Source: Escherichia phage vB_EcoM-Ro121c4YLVW | Sequence record: NC_052654.1 | DNA length: 64,000 bases | Strand: one strand, 5' to 3' | Part shown: positions 11,211 through 28,618 of the stretch, piece after piece | Position numbering within the stretch: the first letter of the stretch is position 1 | How the letters are laid out: every line of letters starts with the position of its first letter | Made by a program: the position numbers and the translations under genes | The notes under the pieces: generated by a model | Databases searched by the model: none | What the model was told of the DNA's origin: nothing | Seen by the model: only the letters and a program-made list of their open reading frames with translations

Positions 11211-11460
11211 TGAGCAAAAAGTAAATAAACGATGCCTTACCATTAAAGATTTGGATGTAGGAGATACTTTCGTCTATGAAAATGCATTTGACGAAAATGG
11301 TTTAGACCTTAGTGAAATCATTGTTTATTTAAAAGTAGATGATGGGGAAAATGATTATTCTGCTGTAGAACTAAACCATCATGCACAATTAGTATCAATC
11401 CAAAACACATCTAAGCTTTTGGAAGTAGAATTGACTGTAACTGGTATTACACTTAAATAA
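11191..11460 (+). CDS. Small beta-rich protein, paralog B (precedes the TerD gene)
   Basis: GTG start after ggaggaag. Paralogous to 9891-10169. Confidence 0.6.
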   Translation: MLNFEIDEQKVNKRCLTIKDLDVGDTFVYENAFDENGLDLSEIIVYLKVDDGENDYSAVELNHHAQLVSIQNTSKLLEVELTVTGITLK

Positions 11461-11475: not shown

Positions 11476-12078
11476 ATGACTGATAAAATTTCCCTGAAAA
11501 AAGGCTCTAGCGAAAAAATTTCCCTGAAGAAAGTTGCTCCGGCTCTGAAAGAACTGCGCCTGGAATTCTCTTGGAAATCTGATTCTAAACTGGATCTGGA
11601 TGTAAGTGCACTGGTTTGTCGTCATAATGCCGCTGGCAATCCTGAAATGCTGTCCGCACGTCATCTGGTTTGCTATGCTAACAAGTTTGATCCTGAACGT
11701 TCTACCTTCGCTGGTGACGATGTTCGTGATGGGACTGGCAGCATGGAGCAGATTGATATTACTCTGGCTAAAATCTCTCCTGATGCACAAGAGATTGCCT
11801 TTGTTCTGACCATTGATGATGATACAGGTCTGAAACGTTTTGGTCATGCTTCTGAAGGTATGCTTAAAATCTTCGACTCCGAGCGTAATGTGGAAATTCT
11901 GGATTTTGACTTCCTGGCTCCTGAAGTAGCTGGCAACACAATCTGCCACGTGGCTTCCCTGGTTCGTGAAGATGGAGAATGGAAGCTGAAAGCATATGGT
12001 GTAGGTAAAGCTGGTCTGGATATTTGCGATGTGGTGATGGCCTTCGGTGGTAAAAAAGAATGGTATGAATGTCCATAA
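11476..12078 (+). CDS. TerD-domain protein (tellurium-resistance TerD family)
   Basis: DKISLKKGSSEKISLKKVAP...LDLDVSALVC and the Ca-binding-type loop FAGDDVRDGTGSMEQIDITL match E. coli TerD (VSLSKGGNVSLSK...FDLDASAF...GDNRTGEGDGDDE). 18 of 19 Leu codons are CTG. Confidence 0.9.
   Translation: MTDKISLKKGSSEKISLKKVAPALKELRLEFSWKSDSKLDLDVSALVCRHNAAGNPEMLSARHLVCYANKFDPERSTFAGDDVRDGTGSMEQIDITLAKISPDAQEIAFVLTIDDDTGLKRFGHASEGMLKIFDSERNVEILDFDFLAPEVAGNTICHVASLVREDGEWKLKAYGVGKAGLDICDVVMAFGGKKEWYECP
11485..11528 (+). repeat. 14-nt perfect direct repeat (aaaatttccctgaa) 30 nt apart, encoding the duplicated KISLKK strand
   Basis: Copies at 11485-11498 and 11515-11528, read directly from the sequence. 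Confidence 0.9.
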
Positions 12079-13400: not shown

Positions 13401-13964
13401 ATGATTTATTATATTACTCCCTATCTGACAGGAAATATCGGCAAGGCTATCAATGAAGCTATTGCCGTTCTTCCAGATGATAGTTGGGTGTGCTTAAGAG
13501 ATACCGATACAATGTTCCTCCTGCCTGATCAACCATCTATGCTTGAAGAGCTTGTTATGTCAAACCCGCCTTTTGATGTAATAGGTGCAACTTGTAACAG
13601 GTTAGGTAGTGGTTATCAGCTTTTCTCTAACCAAATTAACGATGATCCAGATATTCTAAACCATATAGAATATGCTAAGATTGCAAGAGAATATCATAAA
13701 GTGAGTGTTGAAGAAGTTCCTTTCGGAACACCTCTGGCAGGTTTCTTTTTGCTTTTTAGAAAATCATTGTGGAATGAAATTCCTTTCGAAGAAAAATCTA
13801 TCCAATTCGACCTAATTTTCTCTCGCACTTTACATGAAAAAGGAAAGAGGTTAGGATTGATGCGGGGAATGTATCTGTTTCACATTTACAGATTAGGTCA
13901 AACAAATCCTCAACGGTCTATACATCATTTATTACACTGTCACGATCACAGTAAAACTATCTAG
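13401..13964 (+). CDS. Putative GT-A-fold glycosyltransferase
   Basis: N-terminal IYYITPY...NEAI..LPDDSWVCLRDTDTMF has a Rossmann-like start and a DxD-type motif (DTD). Confidence 0.5.
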   Translation: MIYYITPYLTGNIGKAINEAIAVLPDDSWVCLRDTDTMFLLPDQPSMLEELVMSNPPFDVIGATCNRLGSGYQLFSNQINDDPDILNHIEYAKIAREYHKVSVEEVPFGTPLAGFFLLFRKSLWNEIPFEEKSIQFDLIFSRTLHEKGKRLGLMRGMYLFHIYRLGQTNPQRSIHHLLHCHDHSKTI

Positions 13965-13972: not shown

Positions 13973-14656
13973 ATGGAAAATATTAAAATCGGAGTGGGTG
14001 TTATCACTGTAGGTGTCCGTCCACTTAAAGACTATCTTGTAACAGATCCACATGCAGATTTTCGAGTATTCAACGATCCAGATCGTAAAGGTGTAGCTTA
14101 CGCCAGGAATGAACTTATGCACCAGTTTTATGAAGAAGGTTATGATTATTGGTTTATTTTTGACGACGATTGCTACCCAATCATGGAGGGATGGGAAACA
14201 TATTTTGTAGATCAAGCTGTCTCTGGAAGATGGGATTTCTTTGGTATGCCGGAGTATTTCAAAGATAAAGTTGTTGGGAGTAAAGGAGAAGTTATTCTCT
14301 GGGAACTTGCAATGTGTCAATTTGCAATGTATTCTCGTGCCGTTGTTGAGAAGATGGGTTATTTCCGCCCTTACACTCACGGCTATGGTTTTGAAGATGC
14401 TGAATGGGTACACCGTTTGAAAGCTGCTGGTTTGAATCAGGGTATTCAGGCAATACCTTGTCCACTTCGTATCATGGCTTATATCCACCCAGACGATGTT
14501 TTTGGAAACAATCCTATGCCTTTTGCTAATCTGACAAAAGAAGAGAAAGAAGCTGCTATTGGCATTAACTGGGAAGAATATAAAGCGTCTTTAGAAGATA
14601 TTAAAAATGGGAAAATCCGAATTTCTTATGAGGAGGCACTGGCACATGTCAAATAA
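13973..14656 (+). CDS. Family-2-like glycosyltransferase (GT-A)
   Basis: IGVGVITVG...GVAYARNELMHQFYEEGYDYWFIFDDDCYP (DDD motif)...FEDAEW. Confidence 0.6.
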   Translation: MENIKIGVGVITVGVRPLKDYLVTDPHADFRVFNDPDRKGVAYARNELMHQFYEEGYDYWFIFDDDCYPIMEGWETYFVDQAVSGRWDFFGMPEYFKDKVVGSKGEVILWELAMCQFAMYSRAVVEKMGYFRPYTHGYGFEDAEWVHRLKAAGLNQGIQAIPCPLRIMAYIHPDDVFGNNPMPFANLTKEEKEAAIGINWEEYKASLEDIKNGKIRISYEEALAHVK

Positions 14657-15593
14657 AAAATGGACTAAACTGAAAATTGATGCAAAACCTCACAGTGGTT
14701 GTGATTATCATCGTATTGTTATACCATTTAACAACAATAATTTTCAGCCTAAGAAAGATGTTGTCGTGTTTAACCGTATTCATTCTAAAGGTGCAGAATA
14801 CGTTTTATCTTTGAAACGTCAAGGTGTTAAGATTGTTGTAGATTTAGATGATTTCTACCAACTTAATCCAGAACATTATTTAGCAAGTCTATACGAGTCA
14901 AACACTCATGCTATTGTAGCTATGGTTAAGCTTGCTGATGTGGTTATTGTGACTACGGAATATTTAGCATATAAGATCCGTCACTTAAATAGGAATGTTG
15001 TTGTGATCCGAAATGCACTTCCTTTTGATAGCGGACAATTCACTTTGTCAAATGATCGTTCATCCGGTACCCCTGTTGTATGGGCTGGCGGTGCTAGTCA
15101 CGAACCAGACTTACGACTAGTCTCTAATACTTTCGATGATGAACTTCTTACTATTGCGGGATATGAAGCATCACAAAGCATCACGGGACAAGAGTGGATT
15201 AAGATTCGCAGAAATTTACCAAATGCCAAATATAAAGCCGCCGTAAAAGATTTAGATAATTACATGAGTGTTTACGAAAGTCATGCTATTGCTATAGCTC
15301 CTTTGGTAGATAATGATTTTAATAATTGTAAAAGTAATCTCAAAATCCTGGAAGCTGGAGCAAAAGGTATTCCGATTGTTTGTTCTAAGGTATTACCTTA
15401 TTTTAACCCTGTAGATGCTCGCGCTGTTGCTTACGCAGAGAATAAAGCAGAATGGCATTACGAAATTGTTAAGCTTCTTCGCAATCCAAACTATCGGGAA
15501 GATCGTGGCTTGTTCTTGGCTGAACATGTTCGAACACATTATAATCTGGCAGATGCAAACGAGTTGCGACGCCAGGTTATTGAAAGTTTGTAG
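14646..15593 (+). CDS. GT-B-type glycosyltransferase, paralog 1
   Basis: Start re-set to the ATG at 14646 (RBS gaggagg). Shares CDYHRIVIPF, VVWAGGASH and SNLKILEAGAKGIPIVCS with the next gene. Confidence 0.6.
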   Translation: MSNKKWTKLKIDAKPHSGCDYHRIVIPFNNNNFQPKKDVVVFNRIHSKGAEYVLSLKRQGVKIVVDLDDFYQLNPEHYLASLYESNTHAIVAMVKLADVVIVTTEYLAYKIRHLNRNVVVIRNALPFDSGQFTLSNDRSSGTPVVWAGGASHEPDLRLVSNTFDDELLTIAGYEASQSITGQEWIKIRRNLPNAKYKAAVKDLDNYMSVYESHAIAIAPLVDNDFNNCKSNLKILEAGAKGIPIVCSKVLPYFNPVDARAVAYAENKAEWHYEIVKLLRNPNYREDRGLFLAEHVRTHYNLADANELRRQVIESL

Positions 15594-15600
15594 GTGAAGT

Positions 15601-16545
15601 ATGGGACAAATAATTCTTGACAATCGTAACGGAATCAATTATAGTGTCTGCGATTTCCATAGGGTAGTGCTGCCTTACTCAAGGCAGTTCTCTTCACAAC
15701 CTAAACACAACGTTTTCGTTTTTAACGGAGTGCCAACAAAAGGTAAAGAGGGCTTTTTAGCCCTTAAAAACCTGGGCTTTAAAATGGTTATGGATTTGGA
15801 TGACTCTTTAGTTATTCCAAAAGGACACATGTTAGAAGGTATTTTTGAATCAGGTATTCGTGAACATTTAAAATGGTTTTTAGAGCACAGTGATCTTGTT
15901 ACAACTACGACACCTGCCTTGCAAGTTGAACTTTCACAATACAATGATAATGTGCACATAATCCCTAATGGACTTCCTTATGATGAAGGTCAATTTGTGT
16001 TGACCCGTGATCGCTACTCCAAAACTCCATTAGTCTGGGCTGGAAGTGAAACACATAAACAAGATTTGGCTATCTTGCCCGATTTTGGTAAAGATCTTAC
16101 AATATGTGGTTTTCGTAGGGATTCTGAAGTTTTAAGTAGTCGTGAATGGTCTGTAATTAGAGAAAATGTAGCACCAACTAGTGTTTATGAAGGTGTAAGA
16201 CCATATGCCAACTACATGGAATCTTACGATGGTCATCAAATCAGTCTTGCACCATTGGTCGATAACGTGTTTAATAATGCAAAAAGCAATCTTAAAATTC
16301 TTGAGGCAGGTGCTAAGGGTTTACCTTTAATCTGCTCTCCTCGTGAGAATTATCATACGCAAGAGTTTAAAGATTTGTTATTCTTTGCTGAAACACTTTC
16401 CGAGTGGAAAGATATTACGGAATACTTATTAAGTGCTCCCGATGTTTGCATGGAGAAAGGATTAGCATTAGCTAAGTATGTCAGGACTCATTATCACATT
16501 GATGTGTTGAATGAGCGTCGTAGACTTTTATTTGAGGAGCTATAA
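15601..16545 (+). CDS. GT-B-type glycosyltransferase, paralog 2
   Basis: CDFHRVVLPY, LVWAGSETH and SNLKILEAGAKGLPLICS. It is a tandem paralog of 14646-15593. Confidence 0.6.
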   Translation: MGQIILDNRNGINYSVCDFHRVVLPYSRQFSSQPKHNVFVFNGVPTKGKEGFLALKNLGFKMVMDLDDSLVIPKGHMLEGIFESGIREHLKWFLEHSDLVTTTTPALQVELSQYNDNVHIIPNGLPYDEGQFVLTRDRYSKTPLVWAGSETHKQDLAILPDFGKDLTICGFRRDSEVLSSREWSVIRENVAPTSVYEGVRPYANYMESYDGHQISLAPLVDNVFNNAKSNLKILEAGAKGLPLICSPRENYHTQEFKDLLFFAETLSEWKDITEYLLSAPDVCMEKGLALAKYVRTHYHIDVLNERRRLLFEEL

Positions 16546-16835: not shown

Positions 16836-18614
16836 GTGTCGCACATTATAACTAAATATGGATTTGATGTTGATCTTAGCAAGGAAGGGCATACAGGTTG
16901 TCCGCGCTGCATGAAAAATGGCAAGGATCGCTCTCGTAATAACCTGATGGTTTATGGATTAGATTCTAATGGAGAGCATAAAGGTGCTAAGTGCTTTGCG
17001 TGTGAATACACTATTCCTAGCGTAGAATGGTTACGAGAAAATGGTGAAGTTTTAGAAGAAGAGGAGGAGATTGTGGGTTCGGAATTTAATAAACAGATTC
17101 ATCGTAAAATTGTTCAAGAAACATCAACCAACCCACGTGGTTATCGAGGCATTAAAGAAAAAGTTTCATCTTTCTATGGTGTTCGTTATGAATACCGTCA
17201 GGAAGGGGATCAGATGGTAGTAGAAAGTTGTTTATATCCGACTACCATCGGTAAAGAATTGGTTGGTTTTAAGCGTCGTATTCATCCTAAAGATTTCAGT
17301 AAACCTATTGGTCAAGTAGGTAAAGATGTAGATCTTTTTGGACAAATTCGTTTTGCAGACCGTTCTCATACTGTGGTAATTACAGGTGGTGAACACGATG
17401 CTCTGGCAGCTTATCAAATGCTGTCTGAAAACTTGGACAACAAATATGAACTTCCAGCAGTAGTTAGTGGCACAACTGGTGAAACCAGTATGTATAAACA
17501 AGTTCAGGCACAATATCCTTTCTTTGAAAAATTTAAGAAGATTATTGTTTGCATGGATAATGACAAAGCAGGTAATGAGGCATTTGAAAATATTGTTAAG
17601 GTGCTACCTCGTAACAAAGTCTACCGTATGCAGATGGATCTTAAGGATGCCAATCAGTATCTGGAAGAAGGTCGTGCAAAGGATTTCGTAAAGGCTTTTT
17701 GGAGTGCTCGTCTATACACCCCAGCAGGTGTTTATGCTTCTAATGTCTTGTATGAAGCTGCATTAGAATGCTTGGAATCCAAGATGATTACCTTGCCTCC
17801 TTTTATGCGTGTTGCTGCAAATATGCTGGGTGGTGGTTTAGTAGAGGAAGAGATTACAGTCATCCTAGCAAAGACCAGTATCGGTAAAACTTTGATGGTG
17901 AACGAGATCACCAAACATATTATTGTTGCGCACCCAGAACATACCCTAGGTATTCTGTCATTGGAAGCAACTTATAAGAAATATTCTCGTAACCTGTTGT
18001 CCTCGTTCCTGCATATTCCTCTACATAGGAAAACACCGGAAGAGAAATTTCAAATCTTGGAAGAGAATAAAGAAAAAATCCTAGATTTTTACGAAAGAGA
18101 AGATGGATCACCACGTTTTTATGTGTGTGATGATCGTGGAGCAGATGTGGAGTCTATCAAAGAAAAAGTTTTGGAGATGATCATCTATTTTGGAGTAACA
18201 ATTCTTGTTATCGACCCTTATTCTGATTTGCTTTCTGGTATGGATGTTCAAGCCCAAGAAGAGTTAGCAACATGGTTGAAGCGTATCATGAAAGAGTATG
18301 CTATAACTATTATCGTCATCTCACACGTTAAGAAATCGGCTAATGGTGGCAATGAACACTTAACAGAGGACGATGCAATGGGTAGTAGTTTCTTGGCTAA
18401 AGGTGCTGGTATTACCTTGGCTTTGGAACGAGATAAAGCCGCTGAAGACCCTGTAGAACGCAATACGACTCATTGCTTTATCCTAAAAAACCGTGAGTTC
18501 TCGGAGACTGGTCCGGCAGGGCAGTTTTACTATGACATTAGAACTGCAACTCTGCATGACAAAGAGCAGTATTTCAACAACCCTGCTAATTTGCCTACGG
18601 ATAGCAACTATTAA
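16836..18614 (+). CDS. Bifunctional DNA primase-helicase (T7 gp4-like)
   Basis: GTG start after caggagaa. Zn finger CPRC...CFAC, TOPRIM region VITGGEHDALAAYQ...CMDNDKAGNEA, Walker A AKTSIGKT, Walker B LVIDPYSD. Confidence 0.9.
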   Translation: MSHIITKYGFDVDLSKEGHTGCPRCMKNGKDRSRNNLMVYGLDSNGEHKGAKCFACEYTIPSVEWLRENGEVLEEEEEIVGSEFNKQIHRKIVQETSTNPRGYRGIKEKVSSFYGVRYEYRQEGDQMVVESCLYPTTIGKELVGFKRRIHPKDFSKPIGQVGKDVDLFGQIRFADRSHTVVITGGEHDALAAYQMLSENLDNKYELPAVVSGTTGETSMYKQVQAQYPFFEKFKKIIVCMDNDKAGNEAFENIVKVLPRNKVYRMQMDLKDANQYLEEGRAKDFVKAFWSARLYTPAGVYASNVLYEAALECLESKMITLPPFMRVAANMLGGGLVEEEITVILAKTSIGKTLMVNEITKHIIVAHPEHTLGILSLEATYKKYSRNLLSSFLHIPLHRKTPEEKFQILEENKEKILDFYEREDGSPRFYVCDDRGADVESIKEKVLEMIIYFGVTILVIDPYSDLLSGMDVQAQEELATWLKRIMKEYAITIIVISHVKKSANGGNEHLTEDDAMGSSFLAKGAGITLALERDKAAEDPVERNTTHCFILKNREFSETGPAGQFYYDIRTATLHDKEQYFNNPANLPTDSNY

Positions 18615-18631
18615 GGGCTTCGGCCCTTTTA
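18614..18631 (+). terminator. Rho-independent terminator
   Basis: AGGGC-ttcg-GCCCT followed by tttatt. Confidence 0.75.
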
Positions 18632-18644
18632 TTAAAAATACCTG

Positions 18645-18673
18645 TTGACAACTTTGCGGAAGGGACTTATACT
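18645..18673 (+). promoter_or_regulatory. Near-consensus sigma70 promoter
   Basis: TTGACA (18645-18650), 17 nt spacer, TATACT (18668-18673). Confidence 0.65.
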
Positions 18674-18706
18674 TGTCTCATCAACCAAACAAGAGGAGAA
18701 GTAAAA

Positions 18707-19138
18707 ATGCGTATGACAATCGATTTGAATGCAAAAGTTAAAGCTGCTGGTGCTCTGGGTGCTGGTGTTATTAAACACAAACAAGCGTTGGCATTTGCCA
18801 TCCCACATATGATTGTTGAGGATCATCCTGAAGAGTTTGCTGTAAAAGTTGTTGAGAACAATGTTTCTGTTATTGAACATATCCCAACTGGACGTTCTTA
18901 CCGTGTTGTTTCTTCTAAAGGTTTCCGTTTCGATGTAAGCCCTTCTTTCACAAAAGGTGCTGGTCGTAGTAAAGTGGGTATTCTTTCTTACAAATATTAT
19001 ATCGATAAAGTTGCAGATGGTGTTGCATTCTGTCGTGTAAGTGAAGGTAAAGTAGATATCATCTTTAAAAATACTAAAAACATGGTTATTTCTGATGATG
19101 GTAAAGTTGACCTCACTATTGAGTTCGCTAACAACTAA
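18707..19138 (+). CDS. Hypothetical protein with its own strong expression signals
   Basis: It has its own near-consensus promoter, the RBS aagaggag, and a codon choice rich in cgt/ggt/gct. No family motif recognised. Confidence 0.7.
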   Translation: MRMTIDLNAKVKAAGALGAGVIKHKQALAFAIPHMIVEDHPEEFAVKVVENNVSVIEHIPTGRSYRVVSSKGFRFDVSPSFTKGAGRSKVGILSYKYYIDKVADGVAFCRVSEGKVDIIFKNTKNMVISDDGKVDLTIEFANN

Positions 19139-19147
19139 GGAGGACTA

Positions 19148-19942
19148 TTGAGCAAGTTGAACACACTTGATCAATATTACACTAACCCCGCTTATGCGGG
19201 GTTCTTATGTGATAAGATCAAAGAAATTTTTGGAGAGGAAGCTAACTACGTAGAACCATCTGCGGGAGAAGGAGCTTTCTCTTCTTGTTTTAAAAACATA
19301 ACTTCTTTTGATATTGACCCTAAGTTTGAAGATTGTATTGAGGCAGATTTTTTAGCTCAATCTGTTGAGTCTGTTGGTAGCGTAACTGCTTTTGTCGGTA
19401 ATCCTCCATTTGGAAAAAATGCTAGTCTTGCCATTAAATTCTTTAACCATTGTGCTGAAATGCTGGATAACGAAGGTGGTATTTGTTTTATCTTGCCTCG
19501 CACATTTCAAAAAATCTTTTTTGCACACAAACTAAATCCCCATATGCATCTTCTTTACGAAGAAGAATGTCCAAAAGGATCTTTTATTCTTCATGGAGAA
19601 CCTTGGGATGTTCCTTGTGTATTCCAGGTATGGATTAAACGCAACGAGAAGCGTTCTCCCGTTGTTTTAGGAGAGAATCGACTATTCGTATTAGGTAACA
19701 GTAAAGACTACGATATAGCTGTTAGGAGAGCGGGAGCAAGTGCAGGTAGAGTGTTATCAGAAGAAGATTCTTTATCTGAAGCATCTACCTATTTTTTAAA
19801 AGCCTTGACTTCTGATCTTAAAACGCGTATCATTGAGGCTTACCCGTTACTTAAAGCTGAAGCTAGTAAAACTGCGGGAGTAAGAAGTTTAAGTTTAAAA
19901 GAACTTCAGTGGGTTCTGGAGAACATTAGAAAGGAGGAATAG
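19148..19942 (+). CDS. DNA N6-adenine methyltransferase
   Basis: TTG start after aaggagg. Motif I VEPSAGEGAF and motif IV GNPPFGKN (NPPF). Confidence 0.8.
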   Translation: MSKLNTLDQYYTNPAYAGFLCDKIKEIFGEEANYVEPSAGEGAFSSCFKNITSFDIDPKFEDCIEADFLAQSVESVGSVTAFVGNPPFGKNASLAIKFFNHCAEMLDNEGGICFILPRTFQKIFFAHKLNPHMHLLYEEECPKGSFILHGEPWDVPCVFQVWIKRNEKRSPVVLGENRLFVLGNSKDYDIAVRRAGASAGRVLSEEDSLSEASTYFLKALTSDLKTRIIEAYPLLKAEASKTAGVRSLSLKELQWVLENIRKEE

Positions 19943-22900
19943 TGAGTAAGTTTACATGGGATATTGAAGCAAACGGATTGTTGAATAATGACACTATTGA
20001 TTATTTAGCTAGTCCTTATCGTCTCAAAGACACATTTCAAATGCACTGTATTGTCTTAGAGAACCATGAAACAGGAGAAATAGTAGCTTTCCACGATGGC
20101 CCTAAATACATCTTTGATGGGCGTCCTTATGAAGAGTCAGATGGTAAATACACATATGTTCTTAAAGAGTATGTGGCGCAAGATTACACACATTTTCAAC
20201 TAAAAGATTTCCCAGACTTTATTAATCATGAAGGTTATTTTAAAGATAAGCCTGAATATCTGGTTGAAATGGCTGTGGCTCACAACGGTATCAACTACGA
20301 CTGGTTGGCTACAAAACTGTTTTATGGATTAGATTACAGTGTTAAATATAATACGTGGGGCAAAAATAAGGTAAAACTTATTGACTCCTTGATTTTGAGT
20401 AAAGTGTTAAACCCAGATCGAAAGATTGAGGGCAAATCAGGACATAGCTTGGCAGCACTTTCTCGAAAAGCAGGTGGTGATGTAAAAATAGATTTCCGTA
20501 AAGAGATTCCAGAAGAAGATCGATTTAAGACTTTTGCTGCGGATATGCTTTATTACTGTATCTATGACAACAAAGCCAATACGAGCGTATATAATTACCT
20601 TATGGAAGAATGGGGCGATTATGATAAATGGGAAGGTCCATTTGAACTTGAACAACGTGTAGCAGACATTATTACACGCCAGGAACACCGTGGGTTTGCT
20701 TTTAACATGAAGCAAGCAGAAGAGAACCTTGCTTTTTTGGATGCAGAAATGGAGCGTCTTCGTTTACTCGTTGAGCCTATTTTGCCACCTAAACCAGCAA
20801 CAAAAGGTTATCTTAAGGCTTTTATTCCACCTAAGTTGCAAATTAAAAAGAACTTAGAGCCAACTAACCATATGATCAATTTTGCTAAGAAACATGATGG
20901 TCATTTGGAAGAGAGGGATGGCGATTGGTGGTTAGTTATGTTGGGGAAAGAGTGGAAACTGCCAGTTGCAGCAGATGAGCCTCTATGTGATCCTAACATC
21001 CCTGCAACATTGAACGATACAACCCATATTAAAAACTGGCTCGTAGGATTAGGTTGGGTACCGTCTGAATATAAAGATAAAGACTTGACGCTTAAATCTG
21101 GCACCAAAATTAAAAAGAGCGAGGAAGAACTTCAGAAAGGTATTAGAGCTTACGTTGAGCAAACTCTATCTTCTAATTTTTGTCAGGATCGTTGTGATCA
21201 TCTGGAGTGCACACCGGAAACTTTGGAAAGGAAGATTCAAGAGCGTATAGCAAAAGGTAAAGGTCGCGGTCTTAAAGTATTGACTAACCCATGTTTTACC
21301 AAAGGTCAGGAAAAAGAAATTTGTCCTAACCTGCAAGCTTTGGGTGAGAAATTTCCTTATGCTACACAGATTGTAGAATACTTAACGTATAAGCATCGTA
21401 GGAACTCTATTTTAGGTGGCGGTGCTGATTGGGAAGAAGATGAAGAAGATCAAGAATACGATAAAGGTTTCTTAGCCGCAGTAAGGGCGGATGGGCGTAT
21501 TCCTACACCAGCCGCTACATGTGATGCTGCAACCTCTCGTATGAAACATAGATCTGTAGCTAATATTCCTCGTGTCACATCTTTGTTTGGATGGGAGATG
21601 CGTAACTTGTTTGGTGTAGAAGTTCCTAAATACTTCCAGATCGGTTATGACTTCGACTCTTTGGAAGCAAAGATTGAGTCGCATTACTGTGTGCCGATGG
21701 ATGCTCAAGCTTTGACTCGTAAAGGTTGGGTAGGATATCACGACCTGAAGGAAGGGGATGAGATTTTAGGGTACAATGCTGAAACAGGTATGAAAGAATG
21801 GACTAAAGTAAAAGGTAAGGTCTTCTATAAAAATAGTAAGACGTTTGAGATTAAAGGGAAATCACACACTTACCGTGCAACAGCAGATCACCGTTGGTAT
21901 GTTAATACCCGTAGTAAAGGGAATACTTATGTGCCTAAAGTCAGAACAACTGCCGAGCTTTGCACAGGAGATAATATTATTTGTAATGCTCCATTTAACA
22001 TGGAACAAGATCAGGTAAATAGTTTAACTTCTGTTCAACAAGGTAAATGGGATGTTCCGTGGGTAGAGCGTGTAGTTAATATGTCTCATGCCGAGCGTGT
22101 AGCTTTCTTGGAAGGTTTCTTGATTGCAGATGGTTACTGGCATGAACATAAACAAAAACCTGTTTGGCGTTGGGCGCAGAACCCAGGTGAACTTTTTGAA
22201 GCAGCTTTAACTGCCTCGTACCTGGTGCATGGAGGCAATATCTCTGTAGCTTTCAATACAAAAGAGCAGAAAGTAAAAGTGGCAACATTGACTAACCGCT
22301 CTCACATTCCTGTTCAAAGTTTGACTATTGAAGAGTGGGGTGTAGAGGATGTTTGGTGTCCACAAACAGAACTTGGTACGTGGGTCATGCGTCAGAAAGA
22401 CTGCATTACCATCACAGGAAACTGTTGGCGCTACGAACCGGAGCCTCATGAATACTGTAACGCTCTCTTGTTAGAGAAGCCTAACGATGTTCATACCATG
22501 ATGGCAAAACGTATTACAGATACTATTGGGCGTAAATTTGAACGTAGTCCGGCGAAATCTGTTAAATACGGGATCACTTATGGTGCACAAGCAGACAAGG
22601 TTGCTAAAACAATTGGTAGCGATAAATACACAGGGCAACTGGTGTTCGATGCTTTCTGGGAAGCTGCATTCCCACTGGCGCGTCTTAAAGAACGTTTAAA
22701 CGATTTCTGGGTTAAGACTGGTAAACAGTATGTTTTGGGTATTGACGGTCGTAAGGTTCCTACTCGTTCTGCTCACGCGATTCTTAACTCTCTGTTCCAA
22801 AGTGGTGGGGTTATCTGTGCTAAACGTGCAATGGTTATTTATGACGACATGATCGAAGAAGAAGGGCTAAGTGTTGACTTCTTTAAAGATGACTGGAAGA

Positions 22901-23274
22901 ATAAAGACTTCGTGCAACAAATGATTGCATATCACGATGAAGCCCAGCTTGAAGTTTCTCGTAACCTTGTAGAATTTAAATGGTTTTCACCTGAATCATT
23001 AGGTTGGAAGAAAGTAGACGATCCTGAAGAACAAAAGAAAATTGATAAAGAATGCCTTGCTAAAGTTGAAGAATGGAAACATAATAAGGAAAAAGAGACA
23101 GGGCAAATTTGGGCTAACATTCATGAATCTCCCAAAGGTGGATGGTTTACAGCCTATAGTCGGGCAGGTGAACTTGCTGCTTTAGCTGTTACTAAGGCTG
23201 GAGAATTTTACAATCTTAATGTTCAGCTTACTGCCGGATATGATGTGGGTAACTCCTGGGCGTCCTGTCACTAG
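19942..23274 (+). CDS. Family A DNA polymerase with 3'-5' exonuclease domain, interrupted by an intein
   Basis: Exo I FTWDIEANGL, motif A GYDFDSLEAKIESHY, motif B RSPAKSVKYGITYGA, motif C AYHDEAQLEV. The extein junction HY|CWRYEPEPHEY is colinear with T7 DNAP LAHF-MARFDNGEY. Confidence 0.9.
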   Translation: MSKFTWDIEANGLLNNDTIDYLASPYRLKDTFQMHCIVLENHETGEIVAFHDGPKYIFDGRPYEESDGKYTYVLKEYVAQDYTHFQLKDFPDFINHEGYFKDKPEYLVEMAVAHNGINYDWLATKLFYGLDYSVKYNTWGKNKVKLIDSLILSKVLNPDRKIEGKSGHSLAALSRKAGGDVKIDFRKEIPEEDRFKTFAADMLYYCIYDNKANTSVYNYLMEEWGDYDKWEGPFELEQRVADIITRQEHRGFAFNMKQAEENLAFLDAEMERLRLLVEPILPPKPATKGYLKAFIPPKLQIKKNLEPTNHMINFAKKHDGHLEERDGDWWLVMLGKEWKLPVAADEPLCDPNIPATLNDTTHIKNWLVGLGWVPSEYKDKDLTLKSGTKIKKSEEELQKGIRAYVEQTLSSNFCQDRCDHLECTPETLERKIQERIAKGKGRGLKVLTNPCFTKGQEKEICPNLQALGEKFPYATQIVEYLTYKHRRNSILGGGADWEEDEEDQEYDKGFLAAVRADGRIPTPAATCDAATSRMKHRSVANIPRVTSLFGWEMRNLFGVEVPKYFQIGYDFDSLEAKIESHYCVPMDAQALTRKGWVGYHDLKEGDEILGYNAETGMKEWTKVKGKVFYKNSKTFEIKGKSHTYRATADHRWYVNTRSKGNTYVPKVRTTAELCTGDNIICNAPFNMEQDQVNSLTSVQQGKWDVPWVERVVNMSHAERVAFLEGFLIADGYWHEHKQKPVWRWAQNPGELFEAALTASYLVHGGNISVAFNTKEQKVKVATLTNRSHIPVQSLTIEEWGVEDVWCPQTELGTWVMRQKDCITITGNCWRYEPEPHEYCNALLLEKPNDVHTMMAKRITDTIGRKFERSPAKSVKYGITYGAQADKVAKTIGSDKYTGQLVFDAFWEAAFPLARLKERLNDFWVKTGKQYVLGIDGRKVPTRSAHAILNSLFQSGGVICAKRAMVIYDDMIEEEGLSVDFFKDDWKNKDFVQQMIAYHDEAQLEVSRNLVEFKWFSPESLGWKKVDDPEEQKKIDKECLAKVEEWKHNKEKETGQIWANIHESPKGGWFTAYSRAGELAALAVTKAGEFYNLNVQLTAGYDVGNSWASCH
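21688..22422 (+). mobile_element. Intein (245 aa) with a LAGLIDADG-type motif, inserted just after polymerase motif A
   Basis: It starts at Cys (CVPMDAQALTRKGW.., Hint block A). Block B is TADH, the endonuclease-like motif is FLEGFLIADGYW, and it ends ..DCITITGN followed by a +1 Cys. Removing it restores a contiguous motif A to motif B region. Confidence 0.85.
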
Positions 23275-24503: not shown

Positions 24504-24533
24504 TTGACAATATTAAACATTTTATGATAGGAT
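24504..24533 (+). promoter_or_regulatory. Promoter-like element
   Basis: TTGACA (24504-24509), about 18 nt spacer, TAGGAT (24528-24533). The -10 assignment is uncertain and lies very close to the ATG at 24542. Confidence 0.35.
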
Positions 24534-24541
24534 AGCATTCA

Positions 24542-24934
24542 ATGACTGAACGTTCTAAGATAGCTGTTGAAACTGTTTATGGAAACTACACCAGTTTGAC
24601 ACTAGTTGAGAAAAATGTTGTAGGTCTTGACAACTCTTTTTATTTTCAAATTTTGGTTATTCAAGGTGGAAACAAGAAGCTAACTGCTCGTGTCGAAACA
24701 TCTGAAATAATTGAAACCACTGTTACAAACAAAGAATTCATTTCACTGCAAGATACAATCCGAAACGTTATAGACGAAGAAGGCAAAGCTGCCACAATTA
24801 AACTCGGAGGTTTCCCAGTGCAAATAGTTCATTTTCCTAATGGTGAAATTGGAGTTGGAATAGGTAAAGGTAAATACCTGTTAGAGCAAGATGATATGGA
24901 AAGACTCCGCTCTTTCTGTGCAAAATTAATGTAA
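24542..24934 (+). CDS. Hypothetical protein
   Basis: 130-aa ORF between the promoter-like element and the SSB gene. Confidence 0.55.
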   Translation: MTERSKIAVETVYGNYTSLTLVEKNVVGLDNSFYFQILVIQGGNKKLTARVETSEIIETTVTNKEFISLQDTIRNVIDEEGKAATIKLGGFPVQIVHFPNGEIGVGIGKGKYLLEQDDMERLRSFCAKLM

Positions 24935-24950
24935 TGTAGAGGAGATAATA

Positions 24951-25838
24951 ATGTCCGTAATTAATACTGAAACTGATCGTAAAGGCAAAACCGTAACTTA
25001 TGCAACTGGTATCGTAGACTACGTTAAACTGGATAAATTCGCTGAACCTAAAACTTTTCATTGGGAAGGAAAAACGATTGTTTCAACTCACCGAGCCTCT
25101 CTTGTTCTGAAAGAGAAAGGTGCTAAACCAGATGAGAAAGGTGTTTGGATTTCTCTTGGTGACATTGAACTGAAAGAAGGTTATGAAAACCTGCAAGTCA
25201 AAGAAGGTGATAATTGGATCACTATTGAAAAAGGTGTAGAAGTAAGTATTGATATTGATCGCGTTGATAATAAAGGCGGTAAAACTTACTACAATACTAA
25301 AAAATCTCGTATTACAGTATTGTCTACCGATGGTGTTCAGAAGTCTAACAAATCTTCTGGTAATAAAGGTTCCAACGATGCTGCTCCTAAGCAGTCCTAT
25401 AAAAAACGTGATACTGTAGGTCTGGAAACTGGTCACGCAGTAAATGGTGCACTGGAACTGATTCGTAATGGTGTTAAAGGCGATGCTTTCGATATCGCTG
25501 GGGTTGTTCAATCTGCAACTGTCACGCTGAAATCTGAAATTGCTGAATCTCGTGGCGTTGATATTAATGATTATGATCTTGGGGCATCTGTTGGTCACGC
25601 TATTCTCAATGCTTGTAAAGACCATACCATTAAGACTGTCTCTGTAGAAGATCTGATTGATTCTGCTCGTAAAGTTCTGGCTCTGTCTGATAAAGTTGCT
25701 GCTGCCATTCGTGGTTCCGCAGAACAGCCTAAGAAAGAAGAGAAGAAAGAAGTTAAGAAACCTGAACCACAACCAGAACCAACTCCAAGTAATCAAGAAG
25801 AACCTCCAATGGACTTCGACGATGATATTCCATTCTGA
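24951..25838 (+). CDS. ssb: Single-stranded DNA-binding protein
   Basis: RBS gaggag. The N-terminal part is beta-rich, followed by a Gly/Ser/Lys/Pro-rich linker. The C-terminal tip PPMDFDDDIPF is identical to the E. coli SSB tip. Confidence 0.75.
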   Translation: MSVINTETDRKGKTVTYATGIVDYVKLDKFAEPKTFHWEGKTIVSTHRASLVLKEKGAKPDEKGVWISLGDIELKEGYENLQVKEGDNWITIEKGVEVSIDIDRVDNKGGKTYYNTKKSRITVLSTDGVQKSNKSSGNKGSNDAAPKQSYKKRDTVGLETGHAVNGALELIRNGVKGDAFDIAGVVQSATVTLKSEIAESRGVDINDYDLGASVGHAILNACKDHTIKTVSVEDLIDSARKVLALSDKVAAAIRGSAEQPKKEEKKEVKKPEPQPEPTPSNQEEPPMDFDDDIPF

Positions 25839-25901: not shown

Positions 25902-28577
25902 TTAGTCGTAATATTTCAAACCTGTAATGAACTTCGATCCCCAATCCGCACTTGCGGCGGTGAACGTCAACATCCAAGTTGTAGCTGTACCAGTGAAGAC
26001 CTCTCGTTGCACAGTACCATCAGTGTGGTAAATGTCCACGCCAGTATGTCCATTCTTAGGAATAGTGAAGGTAACAGCACTGGTAGTGTCTCGTGCATAA
26101 GAACAAACAAATGGTGTCCCCGCCCAAACTGGATTTGTCATATCACCCATCTCAAGCTGTGGAACCCAAGCAATAAGACCTGCCGTACCATCTCCTGCGA
26201 AAGTGTCTGATCCACTTGCATTCAAAGCTATAATCTCATAGGTTATAGATGCTTGTTTGGCAACTGTCACTTTGTGTAGAATTACACGATACCAACCATT
26301 CCCCATATCGATTATGTTTGCATCTGCACCTGTAAATGTTCCAGCTACAAGATCATAAGTCCCTTCGTTAATCTCATCTCCTGAAGTCAATTTGAGTTTC
26401 ACTTTAGTGATCCCATCTGGCTTCAAGAATACGGATGCCGCCCAGTGCTTACCTGCTGTAATATCAGAAGCTGTATTCACTGCTGATAAAATATGTTGTC
26501 CTGAAGTTGTAGAAGGTGTTAACTTGTAAGTGTTAGCCGTAGTTCCAACCGGAGAGTTGATTGTTGATGCTGTGACTGTCAAGTTCGTCTTCAACCACGG
26601 GGAAGCTGTTGTCAAGTTATTGTTGATAAAGATATGTGTACGGTTGGCTGCTACAACACGTCTACCTTGTGGAGTTGTACCAACATATTCTAAAGGTGCT
26701 ACGGGAGCAGAACTCTCTGTAGGTACAAGGATATCTCCAGAAGCCCTGGCATAACGGTTACTCCTATTGACCTTTACATCCGTTGGAATAGTTTCTTGCG
26801 TCAAATCATAGTCCATCACAATCACCACAGCATTCACTGCGAGATAAGAACTATCTTCGGCAGTTACCACACCTTGATAAGTTGCTCTACAACCGATACG
26901 ACAATCACCATCAGCAACCGCTGTAATAACGCCTGTAACGGGGTCAACTGTTGCTACCGTAGGGTCATTAGAGAAATACTCAACAACCATACCAGGTAAG
27001 CTTGCTGCCCCTGTTGGCGTTATTTCTGCTACCATTGTTTGTGTTGTTCCTACTTCCATCGCAGATAAGCTAGGAGTGTAAACGCTCAATGTTGAAGCAT
27101 ATCCTCCAGAGGTATCTGATAAAGTTGTTCCTTCAGCGTTTAAGGCTGTCATACCTGCATCAAAACCACCTTCTGCATGGAAAGTCATTAAACCAGTAGA
27201 TGATATTGTCATGTTTGCAGGGGCAGAAGAAGTGTATTTAATATTGAAAAGTTTACCTCCTTCTGGGCTAACAGAATGTGTCAACTGTTTAGTTCCGCCT
27301 ACAATACAAATTCCTAAAGAATCTGTAGTTAAGCCAGTTGCCAGAATATCACCCGTAATCACGGAGCTTGCTATTGGTGTGAATTTATTATAGTTTAGAC
27401 CACTATTGAACAGATACGAGGCTTTCCCATCTTTCCAAATACCGGAATAATACATATCTCCATTATAAACGAAAAAGGTTCCTTGATAACCTAATTGGTT
27501 AGTAACATCCATATTCAGCGTATGAACGCTTGTGAGCTTGTTTATATCCCAAGAACCCACTCCTTCAGGTTTAACTGGTTTTCCCACCTGGAGTGGATCT
27601 CCGCTCGCAGAATCATACCCCAAACCTAAGTTTGCAGTGTAGTTCTTACCAATAGCCCACAAGGAATTATTGATCCCAACGAAAAAAGAGTGGCGGCTTG
27701 GTGGAAATTTCCATGTTGAAAAACCTGCTGCAAAGGTGTCCAGTTTAGTGTAGGTTGTTTCTGTATTAGACCTAACATACAAGTAGTTTACCGTACCCGT
27801 ACCACCGGAGGTATCTCCTACAACTATTGTCTGGGAAACTGTATTGATGTAATCTTTGACATACACTGTTTCAGTAGCGGATATCTTGGCATTGACAAAA
27901 GCTGTTGTTGTGTTATTATTACCTGCTAAACCTTTACTGGCTCCACAAACACGCAAGGTTCCCACATTGTTGACATAAGAACATTGGTTGTAACCTGCAT
28001 CAAAAGCAACTGCTGCGCTTGTTATCTGACGAGGAGTAGAAACTTCGTTAGTAGTGCTTGCACCTAAACTGCCTACTGTATTTTGACCCGATCCATAAAG
28101 AACACCACTATTCATTAACCAGAGAGTATTGTTATACCCTCCTTTAACCTCTTTAAGATTGGCTAAAGAAATAGTCCCTGTTATTACAGATGGAAAGCTG
28201 GTCCAAGTAGTTACACATGCATCCGTACCACCTGCTGCTATAGATCCTACCAACCCTGCTGTCAATCCTGAATATTGCCATCCCCCACTGTTAGTTTTAA
28301 TAACAAAACAACGATCTGCGGTAAACACATCTGCTACTACAGTAGAAGCTAAGTGGAAATTATTGAATCGTGCACTACGAGTTCCATCTGCAATCTCACC
28401 AAAAAGGTTTGCGCCTTGAGTAAACAATCTACCATCATTAAGCAAAATTGCTAAACTGCTATTAGAATTACCAGCATTATCTGGGTAATCTAAAGTGATT
28501 ACTTTTTTAACAATACCTGCTGGCAGAGGAACGACACCAGTGCTGGTCATAATAGTAAATATTGGAATTGGAAACAT
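25902..28577 (-). CDS. Tail fibre/receptor-binding protein with Gly-rich propeller-like repeats and a Big_2 Ig-like domain
   Basis: Repeats of the type GANLFGEIADGT, GSGQNTVGSLGAST and GKNYTANLGLGYD. Big_2-like segment TQTMVAEITPTGAA...FSNDPTVATVDPVTGVITAVADGDCRI. It lies at the distal end of the fibre cluster. Confidence 0.7.
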   Translation of the reverse strand: MFPIPIFTIMTSTGVVPLPAGIVKKVITLDYPDNAGNSNSSLAILLNDGRLFTQGANLFGEIADGTRSARFNNFHLASTVVADVFTADRCFVIKTNSGGWQYSGLTAGLVGSIAAGGTDACVTTWTSFPSVITGTISLANLKEVKGGYNNTLWLMNSGVLYGSGQNTVGSLGASTTNEVSTPRQITSAAVAFDAGYNQCSYVNNVGTLRVCGASKGLAGNNNTTTAFVNAKISATETVYVKDYINTVSQTIVVGDTSGGTGTVNYLYVRSNTETTYTKLDTFAAGFSTWKFPPSRHSFFVGINNSLWAIGKNYTANLGLGYDSASGDPLQVGKPVKPEGVGSWDINKLTSVHTLNMDVTNQLGYQGTFFVYNGDMYYSGIWKDGKASYLFNSGLNYNKFTPIASSVITGDILATGLTTDSLGICIVGGTKQLTHSVSPEGGKLFNIKYTSSAPANMTISSTGLMTFHAEGGFDAGMTALNAEGTTLSDTSGGYASTLSVYTPSLSAMEVGTTQTMVAEITPTGAASLPGMVVEYFSNDPTVATVDPVTGVITAVADGDCRIGCRATYQGVVTAEDSSYLAVNAVVIVMDYDLTQETIPTDVKVNRSNRYARASGDILVPTESSAPVAPLEYVGTTPQGRRVVAANRTHIFINNNLTTASPWLKTNLTVTASTINSPVGTTANTYKLTPSTTSGQHILSAVNTASDITAGKHWAASVFLKPDGITKVKLKLTSGDEINEGTYDLVAGTFTGADANIIDMGNGWYRVILHKVTVAKQASITYEIIALNASGSDTFAGDGTAGLIAWVPQLEMGDMTNPVWAGTPFVCSYARDTTSAVTFTIPKNGHTGVDIYHTDGTVQREVFTGTATTWMLTFTAASADWGSKFITGLKYYD

Positions 28578-28590
28578 TTAAACCCTCCAT

Positions 28591-28614: not shown

Positions 28615-28618
28615 TCTG

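Follow-up and report, generated by a model that had tools for sequence, protein, structure and literature searches.

Type II restriction-modification (R-M) systems, in particular those which pair a small homodimeric PD-(D/E)xK endonuclease with a gamma-class m6A methylase, are the closest described counterparts of the locus reported here. Two of their enzymes have engineered mutants, EcoRI E111Q and BamHI E113K, which bind their sites tightly without cutting, and the first has been employed as a roadblock to transcription and replication. Host-takeover proteins which spare phage DNA by its modification state are known from phage T4 (Alc, and the nucleoid disruption protein Ndd). For the site GTAC, the CviQI system of chlorella virus NY-2A provides a functional comparison, and the GTAC-specific R.PabI and R.HpyAXII differ in fold from the protein described below, being half-pipe glycosylases (PMC2588503).

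We analysed a 64,000-nt stretch (the window) of the phAPEC8-like coliphage Escherichia phage vB_EcoM-Ro121c4YLVW (NC_052654.1), and in it a 143-aa protein which we refer to as X. X is similar in size to the small Type II endonucleases, its gene adjoins or overlaps that of an NPPF N6-adenine methylase and its carrier genome avoids the site, all as in Type II R-M systems, and like CviQI it is virus-borne. Unlike Type II R-M systems, X has P, S, R and V where E...D...(D/E)xK would stand, is found in viruses only and carries expression signals far above those of its methylase. As in EcoRI E111Q and BamHI E113K, a neutral or basic residue (R66; K in most homologues) stands in place of the metal-binding acid of the ExK strand and the putative recognition elements are kept, but those proteins are single-substitution laboratory mutants, whereas X belongs to a natural family changed at four positions under long-term purifying selection. 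With Alc and Ndd it would have a concept in common, that of an early abundant protein acting on host DNA since the phage DNA is modified, yet there is no likeness in sequence or fold, and T4 uses hydroxymethylcytosine, not a methylated 4-bp site. Our best explanation overall, to which we give a probability just under one half (about 0.48), is that X and the methylase form an R-M-derived module in which X binds unmethylated GTAC in host DNA without canonical cutting.

The X gene and its expression signals

The initial annotation had drawn attention to this 143-aa open-reading frame behind a near-consensus promoter, a strong RBS and a hairpin, lying between the primase-helicase and the methylase/polymerase genes, and the signals and open-reading frame coordinates bear this out (Table 1). 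The GenBank record of phAPEC8 already marks a host-dependent promoter at this position. In Klebsiella phage 05F01, where X is 58% identical, the promoter reads TTGACA-17-TAAGAT and the AAGAGGAG RBS recurs; in a lineage which we call P0005 the promoter is weaker (TTGCAA-17-TAGTCT), and the AGAGGAG core of the RBS is kept in both. To have ranked this promoter as the best on its strand was an overstatement: the match itself stands, but promoter-like matches in the region are no commoner than in shuffled sequence (39 vs. 37.8) and the + strand has six further sites matching at least 11/12, including a 12/12 match at 11122. The upstream terminator is present as a hairpin whose 6-bp stem is paired by RNAfold (whole 55-nt context, MFE −11.2 kcal/mol); its T-tract is weak, which is why it is missing from a consensus terminator scan, and it is not conserved in 05F01.

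Table 1. Features of the X locus, in coordinates of the window
Feature	Position	Strand	Remarks
Primase-helicase	16836-18614		5' neighbour of X
Terminator-like hairpin AAGGGC-TTCG-GCCCTT, then TTATT	18613..18633	+	Directly 3' of the primase-helicase stop codon; stem-loop itself 18613-18628
Sigma-70-type promoter TTGACA-17-TATACT	18645..18673	+	Match 11/12; TTGACA 18645-18650, 17-nt spacer, TATACT 18668-18673
RBS of X, AAGAGGAG	18691..18698	+	8 nt upstream of ATG; read from sequence
CDS of X (143 aa, ATG start)	18707..19138	+	Predicted PD-(D/E)xK-fold protein, PHROG 9938, family B
Codons for P79-R87 (PSFTKGAGR)	18941..18967	+	Sole motif common to families A and B (PSxxxGxxR)
RBS of methylase, AAGGAGG	19137..19143	+	Overlaps the X stop codon; read from sequence
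N6-adenine DNA methylase, gamma-class (264 aa, TTG start)	19148..19942	+	Inferred specificity GTm6AC
Family-A polymerase	19942-23274		Beyond the methylase, 3' of X

The open-reading frame had also been called codon-optimised, and on a rough index, based on our own list of E. coli-preferred codons, X indeed ranks third of the 73 open-reading frames in the window and first on the + strand, with CGT and GGT making up a fraction of 0.94 of its Arg and Gly codons. The methylase gene 3' of it is outside the top 15 and starts with TTG; X has a promoter of its own, a strong RBS and an ATG start, whereas the methylase is co-transcribed. High expression of X is plausible because the promoter and RBS are kept in a relative only 58% identical and because its codon preferences resemble those of the window's most biased genes. 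That much agrees with the proposal that X is needed in bulk; a link to the replisome is unsupported, as the neighbour conserved in distant lineages is the methylase and neither the primase-helicase nor the polymerase. The protein is mildly basic and free of Cys pairs as described (pI 9.2, one Cys).

X is not the orphan that it was taken for. It matches the PHROG 9938 HMM over residues 1-138 (E 2e-62), as do 24 of the 25 homologues aligned to it, and its locus keeps a fixed, syntenic position, at 98-100% identity, across 64 phage records (Phapecoctavirus). Further relatives, which together with X we designate family B, occur in Klebsiella phages, in Vequintavirus (rV5-like) and in metagenomic viruses, with 50-58% identity in the syntenic ones. 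A search of 185,579 cellular species genomes for the family-B motif gave a single MAG contig, which is the phage itself. Scans of X and all 25 homologues against Pfam, NCBIfam and PADLOC returned nothing credible (single weak matches to B3, Cas4 and similar), family B matched no PDB sequence in a profile search, and our literature searches found no paper tying GTAC to these phages or describing X. One HMM-search match, a 690-aa low-complexity repeat protein (P0014), was excluded as a false positive. Phages of the phAPEC8-like and rV5-like groups are common candidates for therapy and biocontrol and most of their early genes lack a known function; for one such gene, highly conserved and apparently strongly expressed, and for the neighbouring methylase, a testable function can now be offered.

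Fold, sister family and active site of X

Structure prediction and a Foldseek search had been suggested as a check. An AF2 model of X from 25 diverse sequences reached a pLDDT of 89.5 and a pTM of 0.84, for which the distant members recovered by an exhaustive HMM search were needed (pLDDT 46 with six close homologues only), and an independent BFVD model superposes on it with a TM of 0.98. The protein had been described as beta-rich: a sheet is present, but the model is alpha/beta and three N-terminal helices precede the sheet. It contains the alpha-beta-beta-beta-alpha-beta core of the PD-(D/E)xK superfamily, and its structural neighbours include PvuII, MspI and the catalytic domains of DpnI and NhoI, with the homing endonuclease I-Ssp6803I and archaeal Hjc resolvases at the top; the Foldseek matches, at E 0.07, are not significant. 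As modelled, the fold is restriction-endonuclease-like, and neither an OB fold nor a clamp. The catalytic residues of I-Ssp6803I and of Hjc are absent from X, and X differs from homing endonucleases in being neither sporadic nor intron-borne, its synteny being fixed across the 64 records.

A second family, which we designate family A, is the commonest neighbour of this type of methylase (16 of 80 loci) and is found in phages and giant-virus MAGs (P0030, P0034-P0038 and the neighbours at L031-L091). In it DGR, D and K are invariant and a helix E nearly so, and PSxxxGxxR and (D/E/Q)xK motifs are present. Alignment of the two families with hhalign (probability 96.5%, E 1e-9, 116 columns) places the E, D, (D/E/Q) and K of family A on P33, V53/S54, R66 and V68 of X, and MAFFT agrees. 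Of 31 family-B sequences, 28 have P and 3 have Y at position 33, and 27 have K and 3 have R at position 66. Positions 53/54 are mostly hydrophobic, K is absent from position 68 throughout, and none of the acidic columns is invariant; the residue set of an active PD-(D/E)xK endonuclease (helix Glu, Asp, (D/E/Q)xK) is lacking in X. On these alignments, X is a homologue of a canonical sister family, having lost the canonical catalytic residues. The two families have the methylase partner, the PSxxxGxxR loop and a similar length in common, but family A genes usually converge on that of the methylase, whereas those of family B are co-directional and overlapping. There is no Pfam family for family A and no solved structure, and a profile search of PDB sequences with it gave noise only.

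The loop P79-R87 has a lower model confidence (about 60), and its K83, G84 and R87 are invariant in the 31 sequences; we presume from the alignments that it is the DNA-recognition loop. Other polar positions are conserved in part (E/D38 in 26 of the 31, E/D50 in 24, D/H/N58 in 30 and D/N76 in 30). Catalytic residues are known to have moved within the PD-(D/E)xK enzymes, as in Cfr10I and NgoMIV with their SxK and a distant Glu, and the four positions could, with the invariant K83, form a variant active site.

The methylase partner and GTAC in the phage genomes

The product of the gene 3' of X has motif I (EPSAGEGAF, residues 36-44) N-terminal to motif IV (NPPF, 85-88), both invariant in five orthologues, in keeping with the order of the gamma class, in which a C-terminal target-recognition region follows. 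It matches PHROG 5172/799 (PHROG 799, 'DNA methyltransferase', at 1e-10), with a sub-threshold match only to Pfam Eco57I, and is 54% identical to its Vequintavirus orthologue and 39-43% to metagenomic ones. The X gene abuts an NPPF methylase in 10 of 11 family-B lineages, in either gene order: it is directly 5' of the methylase, usually overlapping, in Phapecoctavirus, 05F01 and metagenomic loci (L009-14, L017, L062, L108-110), and directly 3' and overlapping in Vequintavirus. The methylase of 05F01, at one point thought to be lost or split, is intact, with a TTG start overlapping the X stop codon. Each gene also occurs alone, the methylase without X in 73 of the 80 loci fetched and X without a nearby methylase in the P0005 lineage; they therefore behave as autonomous R and M genes would, and unlike subunits of one enzyme. 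As in Type II R-M systems, a gene of endonuclease fold stands beside its putative cognate methylase and each is separable from the other, and X is very probably the restriction-enzyme-fold partner of this methylase.

The specificity can be approached through the Vequintavirus orthologue. In Bas51 (Vequintavirinae), m6A was reported at 1405 GATC and 509 GTAC adenines, and in a T83P mutant of its GATC methylase 511 GTAC adenines were still m6A (PMC12548924, S4 table). In one complete Vequintavirus genome we counted 691 GATC sites (1382 A), 265 GTAC sites (530 A) and only two open-reading frames with a (D/N/S)PP(Y/F) motif: the published GATC enzyme, an NPPY protein with D69, D79 and T83, and, adjoining X, the orthologue of the window methylase. 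An identification of the D69/D79/T83 enzyme with the neighbour of X was discarded, as those residues belong to the separate 177-aa NPPY enzyme which makes Gm6ATC. By elimination in this 54%-identical orthologue, together with the depletion of GTAC described below, we infer GTm6AC as the product of the window methylase family, which would assign the previously unexplained GTm6AC of a BASEL Vequintavirus to a specific gene. An open-reading frame at 13401-13964 of the window also has an NPPF string and is unrelated to the GATC methylase.

Across 73 viral loci with the methylase family, GTAC occurs 426 times against 1142 expected, a depletion deeper than that of any other of the 256 tetranucleotides. 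The window has 56 against 202 expected, again the lowest ratio of the 256, and GTAC is depleted in every 4-kb bin. The GTAC ratio is near normal in phage phi92 (0.80), whose 42 kb examined contain neither X nor a methylase of the X-neighbour family, and in E. coli K-12 (0.90), with sites in the latter about every 350 bp or roughly 13,000 per chromosome. The four contigs of the P0005 lineage contain no GTAC at all against 89, 80, 55 and 43 expected, despite GTAT (135) and ATAC (107) being common; this lineage is seen over about 20 kb and a methylase could lie elsewhere in its genome. X is nevertheless retained there at 50% identity, in 20 kb of sequence with zero GTAC, which argues against the phage's own DNA as its substrate. 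Depletion, which tracks the methylase family overall, may stem from GTAC nucleases encountered in hosts or encoded by ancestors, and not from X itself. The proposed module would explain why GTAC is the rarest tetranucleotide in these genomes. Taken with the methylase linkage and the loop shared with family A, the avoidance of the site suggests that X is probably directed at GTAC. A DNA-coating protein or a host-takeover factor, both named among the possible roles in the initial annotation, would fit these results, although that was a guess made without the methylase or GTAC.

Binding or cutting

In the module that we favour, X and the downstream methylase would both derive from a Type II R-M system, the methylase writing GTm6AC on phage DNA and X descending from a small PD-(D/E)xK endonuclease which partners the same methylase family elsewhere. 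All four ancestral positions would have been replaced (Glu to Pro33, Asp to Ser54, (D/E/Q) to Arg66, which is Lys in most, and Lys to Val68) and the presumed DNA-reading loop, PSxTKGxGR, retained. With a strong promoter and RBS of its own, X would be made early and in large amounts and would bind unmethylated GTAC with no cleavage by canonical chemistry; phage DNA would escape because it is GTAC-methylated and GTAC-poor. X would thus act as a methylation reader which discriminates host from phage DNA, and the consequence would be that host transcription or replication is blocked, or that host DNA is marked for other nucleases. In one lineage the purge of GTAC would have gone to completion and the methylase been dropped. 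By analogy to EcoRI E111Q and BamHI E113K, X would be expected to bind its sites tightly and in a methylation-sensitive manner and to leave them uncut. We hold it to be close to an even chance that X is a non-cleaving binder acting on host DNA; more tentative is the fuller picture of a nuclease-dead GTAC endonuclease which clamps ~13,000 host sites and shuts down or flags the chromosome, with the phage exempt through its methylase and its GTAC purge. If X is such a non-cutting reader, it would represent a natural restriction enzyme turned DNA-binding host-takeover factor, a naturally occurring equivalent of the EcoRI(E111Q) roadblock which takes over the host by a new mechanism, and it could be of use as a compact DNA-binding module for a 4-bp site, sensitive to methylation.

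The same fold, methylase linkage and GTAC pattern would be expected if X were an active GTAC endonuclease with a rearranged active site, shredding unmethylated DNA of the host or of competitor phages early in infection, in which case the co-transcribed methylase and GTAC avoidance would protect the phage and the pair would amount to a genuine Type II R-M system carried by a phage, comparable to those of the chlorella viruses. The P0005 lineage speaks for cutting, as 0 GTAC against 89 expected is the pattern classically left by a lethal cutter: total loss in a lineage without a visible methylase is the outcome of lethal cleavage, and binding need only be costly. The sister family has canonical residues and is nuclease-like, catalytic residues are known to have migrated elsewhere in the superfamily, and E/D38, E/D50 and D/H/N58 could combine with K83 as above. 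Against this, all four canonical positions are replaced, the metal-binding acid by Lys or Arg and the helix Glu by Pro (28 of 31), and the want of any invariant acid in 31 sequences is unusual for a metal-dependent nuclease. In X of the window itself the best candidate positions are H58 and R66, not D and K. Expression signals far exceeding those of the methylase would be odd for a cutter produced beside its own genome with 56 sites in 64 kb, and functional R-M systems normally spread through cellular genomes, from which the family is missing. We consider cleavage by X, the main rival reading, unlikely on balance, together with the protecting R-M system that it implies; if X does cut, a lytic coliphage would carry a new restriction enzyme for GTAC whose active site is unorthodox. 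Whether X binds or cuts, the members of family A are good candidates for uncharacterised GTAC endonucleases of phages and giant viruses.

X might instead serve the phage's own DNA, by assisting or targeting the methylase as its partner, or as a nuclease-dead shield which covers GTAC until it is methylated, an anti-restriction measure against host GTAC nucleases. The tight adjacency of the two genes, often overlapping and in both orders, would suit such a role, as would the loss of catalytic residues with the common loop kept and the apparent high expression. The methylase however stands without X in 73 of 80 loci, and so is independent of it, X persists without a methylase where the visible genome has zero GTAC to shield, and a shield would presumably add little to parental DNA which enters methylated and daughter DNA which is hemimethylated. 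This makes a role on phage DNA improbable.

Still less probable is a structure-specific nuclease or junction binder, such as an Hjc-like resolvase or a processor of flaps and branches, to which the methylase would be adjacent by accident. The position of X between primase-helicase and polymerase in Stephanstirmvirinae would agree with it, but marine loci have no replisome linkage, the immediate neighbour in Vequintavirus is the methylase, and the methylase linkage holds in 10 of 11 lineages. The Foldseek matches are non-significant (E 0.07), the Hjc catalytic E-D-E-K set is absent from X, and the GTAC pattern would be left unexplained.

A replisome accessory, namely a processivity factor or an ssDNA-coating protein stoichiometric with polymerase and primase-helicase, would suit the gene's position between these two and its strong expression signals, and a text search of the rV5 genome paper returned no mention of an SSB, but the idea is barely credible: the modelled fold is neither OB nor clamp, X has no acidic C-terminal tail of the kind that serves T7 gp2.5 and SSB, its conserved partner is the methylase, and in phi92, whose primase-helicase (70% identity) and polymerase are orthologous, the slot is occupied by an unrelated gene and 42 kb contain no X. 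The processivity or accessory-factor role put forward in the initial annotation thus falls, given the clear homology of X to an unrelated family. The phi92 gene in the X slot, gp160, and a methylase plus small open-reading frame pair in the same phage, gp155/gp154, were considered as counterparts and matched neither the X nor the methylase profiles. In one set of metagenomic relatives, the X-methylase pair opens a transcription unit beside genes for an RNA ligase and NrdD.

Gene, expression signals and viral relatives

The 143-aa protein studied here (X) is encoded by a real open-reading frame, as the initial annotation had it. The promoter-like site in front of it is also present, yet to call it the best on its strand was an overstatement, as promoter-like matches in the region are as frequent as in shuffled sequence (39 vs. 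37.8) and six other sites on the window's + strand match at least 11 of 12 positions, including a 12/12 match at 11122. The supposed terminator fared similarly: its 6-bp hairpin exists, but the T content is too weak for the terminator scan to list it. We consider the X signals credible because a host-type promoter is annotated at the same spot in the phAPEC8 GenBank record, both promoter and ribosome-binding site (RBS) are kept in Klebsiella phage 05F01 despite just 58% protein identity, and the gene ranks third among 73 window ORFs (first on the + strand) on a rough codon index of our own that scores E. coli-preferred codons. Codon optimisation was rightly noted, CGT or GGT making up 94% of Arg and Gly codons, as were a basic character (pI 9.2) and a lack of Cys pairs (one Cys). 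The methylase gene directly downstream starts at TTG and falls beyond the window's top 15 on the index, and, judging by these signals, X seems to reach a much higher expression level.

Coordinates of the X gene and of other features in the window
Feature	Position	Strand	Details
Promoter-like site	11122-11150	+	TTGACA-16-TATAAT, perfect sigma-70 consensus
ORFs behind the 11122 site	11191-11460, 11476-12078
Glycosyltransferase-like genes	13973-16545		run just upstream of replication genes
Hairpin	18613-18628		6-bp stem, TTCG loop, then TTATT; directly 3' of primase-helicase stop codon
Promoter-like site	18645-18650 / 18668-18673	+	TTGACA-17-nt spacer-TATACT, 11/12 match
RBS of X	18691-18698		AAGAGGAG
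X ORF	18707-19138	+	ATG start, 143 aa
Methylase	19148-19942		NPPF N6-adenine enzyme
Polymerase gene	19942-23274
Insert in polymerase	21688-22422		245 aa, residues 583-827

The window belongs to a Phapecoctavirus (phAPEC8-like, Stephanstirmvirinae), and many E. coli phage genomes match it at 99% identity. X is no orphan: it matches PHROG 9938 (E 2e-62), is 98-100% identical across 63 phage records, and has a Vequintavirus (rV5-like) branch, a 152-aa protein in >100 records. Together these homologues form a family (family B) which is small, since just 21 representatives emerged when 1.84 billion representative proteins were searched exhaustively by profile, and virus-only; a motif scan covering one genome for each of 185,579 species of bacteria and archaea had as its sole match a contig from a MAG, and that contig is this phage. 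Searches of Pfam, NCBIfam, PADLOC and PDB sequences with the family returned nothing, the gene is annotated as hypothetical in every record looked at, and a literature search found no paper tying X, the methylase or these phages to GTAC. Some records labelled as Campylobacter phage (UNVERIFIED) or Acinetobacter phage (e.g. MG065655.1, MG065650.1, OP562383.1) match genomes of E. coli Phapecoctavirus or Vequintavirus at 99% identity, and these host labels are probably wrong.

Pairing of X with an adenine methylase

Stephanstirmvirinae share the order primase-helicase, X, methylase, polymerase; in Vequintavirus the X homologue instead lies behind the methylase (54% identical to that of the window), overlapping the 3' end of the methylase gene. 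Unrelated contigs from marine and other metagenomes carry X (27-31% identity) ahead of, and overlapping, a protein of 257-258 aa that shares 39-43% identity with the window methylase, and IMG/VR scans found X then methylase also at loci L017, L062, L108 and L109/110. In 05F01 (L002, LC483177.1, 6419-7192) the methylase is an intact 257 aa from a TTG start overlapping the X stop codon, and its split into 35-aa and 200-aa ORFs in GenBank is an annotation artefact. X is paired with the methylase in 10 of 11 family-B lineages, in either gene order, and each gene is also found without the other, which is how the R and M genes of Type II systems behave. The exception is a metagenomic, X-only lineage (P0005; L097-L100), where X is 50% identical, an unrelated 112-aa ORF takes the methylase's place (L097, 10475-10813) and no methylase of this family occurs in the 20 kb seen. 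Phage phi92 has an orthologous primase-helicase (70% identical) and polymerase separated by an unrelated gene, with neither X nor a window-type methylase in 42 kb. The protein in this phi92 slot (L095, NC_023693.1, 21784-22179; 131 aa) is annotated as a 'potential endonuclease/hydrolase' and is unrelated to X; elsewhere in phi92 (27782-28901) a DPPY methylase is overlapped by a 143-aa ORF, these being unrelated to the NPPF methylase and X.

Methylase specificity and GTAC avoidance

In the window methylase, motif IV (NPPF) lies C-terminal to motif I (EPSAGEGAF), as in N6-adenine enzymes of the gamma class. Nanopore data for Bas51 (Vequintavirinae) from a 2025 retron-trigger study (PMC12548924, S4 table) list 1405 methylated adenines in GATC, 509 in GTAC and 576 in other contexts, and with the T83P change in 'the N6-adenine methyltransferase' the numbers are 35 in GATC and 511 in GTAC; as GTAC methylation survives the mutation, a second phage enzyme must make GTm6AC. 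In the complete Vequintavirus genome MG065655.1 (140,158 bp), GATC occurs 691 times (1382 adenines) and GTAC 265 times (530 adenines), near the published counts, and exactly two of its ORFs of at least 100 aa contain (D/N/S)PP(Y/F/W/H). The first, a 177-aa NPPY protein (24530-25111, - strand), has D/D/T at residues 69/79/83, matching the escape mutations of the published retron trigger (D69, D79, T83), and its sequence identifies it as the Bas51 GATC enzyme. The second, an NPPF protein of 272 aa, is orthologous to the window methylase and adjoins X, and with the NPPY protein accounting for GATC it is the GTAC methylase by elimination, an assignment made in the 54%-identical Vequintavirus orthologue, not this phage. 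A further, independent line of support is a set of 73 IMG/VR loci with the methylase family and without family-B X: of all 256 tetranucleotides, GTAC shows the strongest depletion there (426 sites where 1142 are expected). At L018 (IMG/VR 3300033075_000126), a locus with a methylase and a protein of family A (described below), GATC is absent from 7.7 kb (0 vs. 15 expected) and GTAC just mildly low (0.77), and this sub-branch may have a different specificity.

GTAC avoidance accompanies the module. The window holds 56 GTAC sites against 202 expected from trinucleotide frequencies, the lowest ratio (0.28) among the 256 tetranucleotides, with every 4-kb bin depleted; GGCC (0.45), CCGG (0.50) and CTAG (0.55) are also low and GATC is undepleted (0.93). 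Ratios are 0.59 in Vequintavirus, 0.29 in 05F01 and 0.16 in L062, vs. 0.80 in phi92 and 0.90 in E. coli K-12 (50 kb). The four contigs of the X-only lineage, over about 20 kb, contain no GTAC (89, 80, 55 and 43 expected), yet GTAT (135) and ATAC (107) are plentiful. Because depletion tracks the whole methylase family, it is not attributable to X alone. E. coli DNA offers about one unmethylated GTAC per 350 bp, whereas these phages hide or delete such sites.

Three of the four GTAC sites of the 20-24 kb bin lie inside the polymerase insert. The phAPEC8 polymerase, 99-100% identical outside the insert, lacks it, so that the insert would be recently acquired DNA, with which these sites are consistent. 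Pfam does not recognise the insert, which from its sequence (C...N then C) looks like an intein; the phi92 polymerase has a similar extra length.

Fold, lost active site and possible function of X

The AlphaFold model of X built with 25 diverse sequences (pLDDT 89.5, pTM 0.84; pLDDT 46 with only six close sequences) superposes on an independent BFVD model of the same protein (TM 0.98), its presumed recognition loop having the lowest confidence (about 60). The neighbour most often seen beside the methylase family (at 16 of 80 loci, a good number of them giant-virus MAGs, usually convergent) is a sister family of 150-170 aa proteins from phages and giant-virus MAGs (family A; L018/L019, L031-L091; P0030, P0034-P0038). 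DGR, D and K are invariant and a helix E nearly so, with (D/E/Q)xK and PSxxxGxxR also present; these motifs read as a textbook PD-(D/E)xK signature, and family A members are likely to be unrecognised GTAC restriction endonucleases. Two further clusters of methylase neighbours comprise 13 and 8 loci. The X profile matches family A directly (E 2.6e-6), and the two families align profile to profile with 96.5% probability (E 1e-9, 116 columns).

Both hhalign and MAFFT place the family A helix Glu at P33 of X, the Asp at V53/S54 (strand 2 start), the (D/E/Q) at R66 and the Lys at V68 (middle of strand 3), the places at which the fold has these residues; identity is 15-25%, and the two methods and the predicted strand positions concur. 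Among 31 family-B sequences, 28 have Pro and three have Tyr at position 33, 27 have Lys and three have Arg at position 66, position 68 is never Lys and no acidic column is invariant. On these alignments X lacks the ancestral active site. The invariant residues (K83, G84, R87) fall in a loop common to family A, presumably for DNA recognition.

These facts point to X and the methylase as a module derived from a GTAC restriction-modification system, in which the methylase half is intact and the 'restriction' half retains the fold and presumed recognition loop without the canonical chemistry. EcoRI E111Q and BamHI E113K are laboratory mutants which bind DNA but do not cleave it; the basic residue of X in place of a metal-binding acid resembles them, and for this reason we favour X as a non-cutting binder, at a probability of roughly 0.48. 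It would act as a stoichiometric, methylation-sensitive GTAC binder, probably on host DNA, as X is kept in a lineage without any GTAC in its visible genome, and could roadblock host transcription or replication, remodel the nucleoid or flag DNA for other nucleases.

The main rival, rather less probable, is that an active site at new positions lets family B go on cutting GTAC DNA or damage it in some other way, its strongest point being the total GTAC purge in the methylase-less lineage. Much less likely are a methylase cofactor or shield, since most methylase loci lack X and one lineage has X without the methylase, and a resolvase-like replication nuclease. The replisome accessory or SSB first proposed is also much less likely, as the conserved neighbour of X is the methylase and phi92 has the replisome genes without X. 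Restriction-modification systems in viruses and inactive members of enzyme folds are already known.

Elsewhere in the window, the 200-aa ORF behind the 11122 promoter has the fourth highest codon-preference index and is probably the TerD-like gene of relatives, its signals marking another strongly expressed early unit. Four glycosyltransferase genes are annotated in phi92 at the place corresponding to the glycosyltransferase-like run, and DNA glycosylation in these phages has been suggested by other authors.
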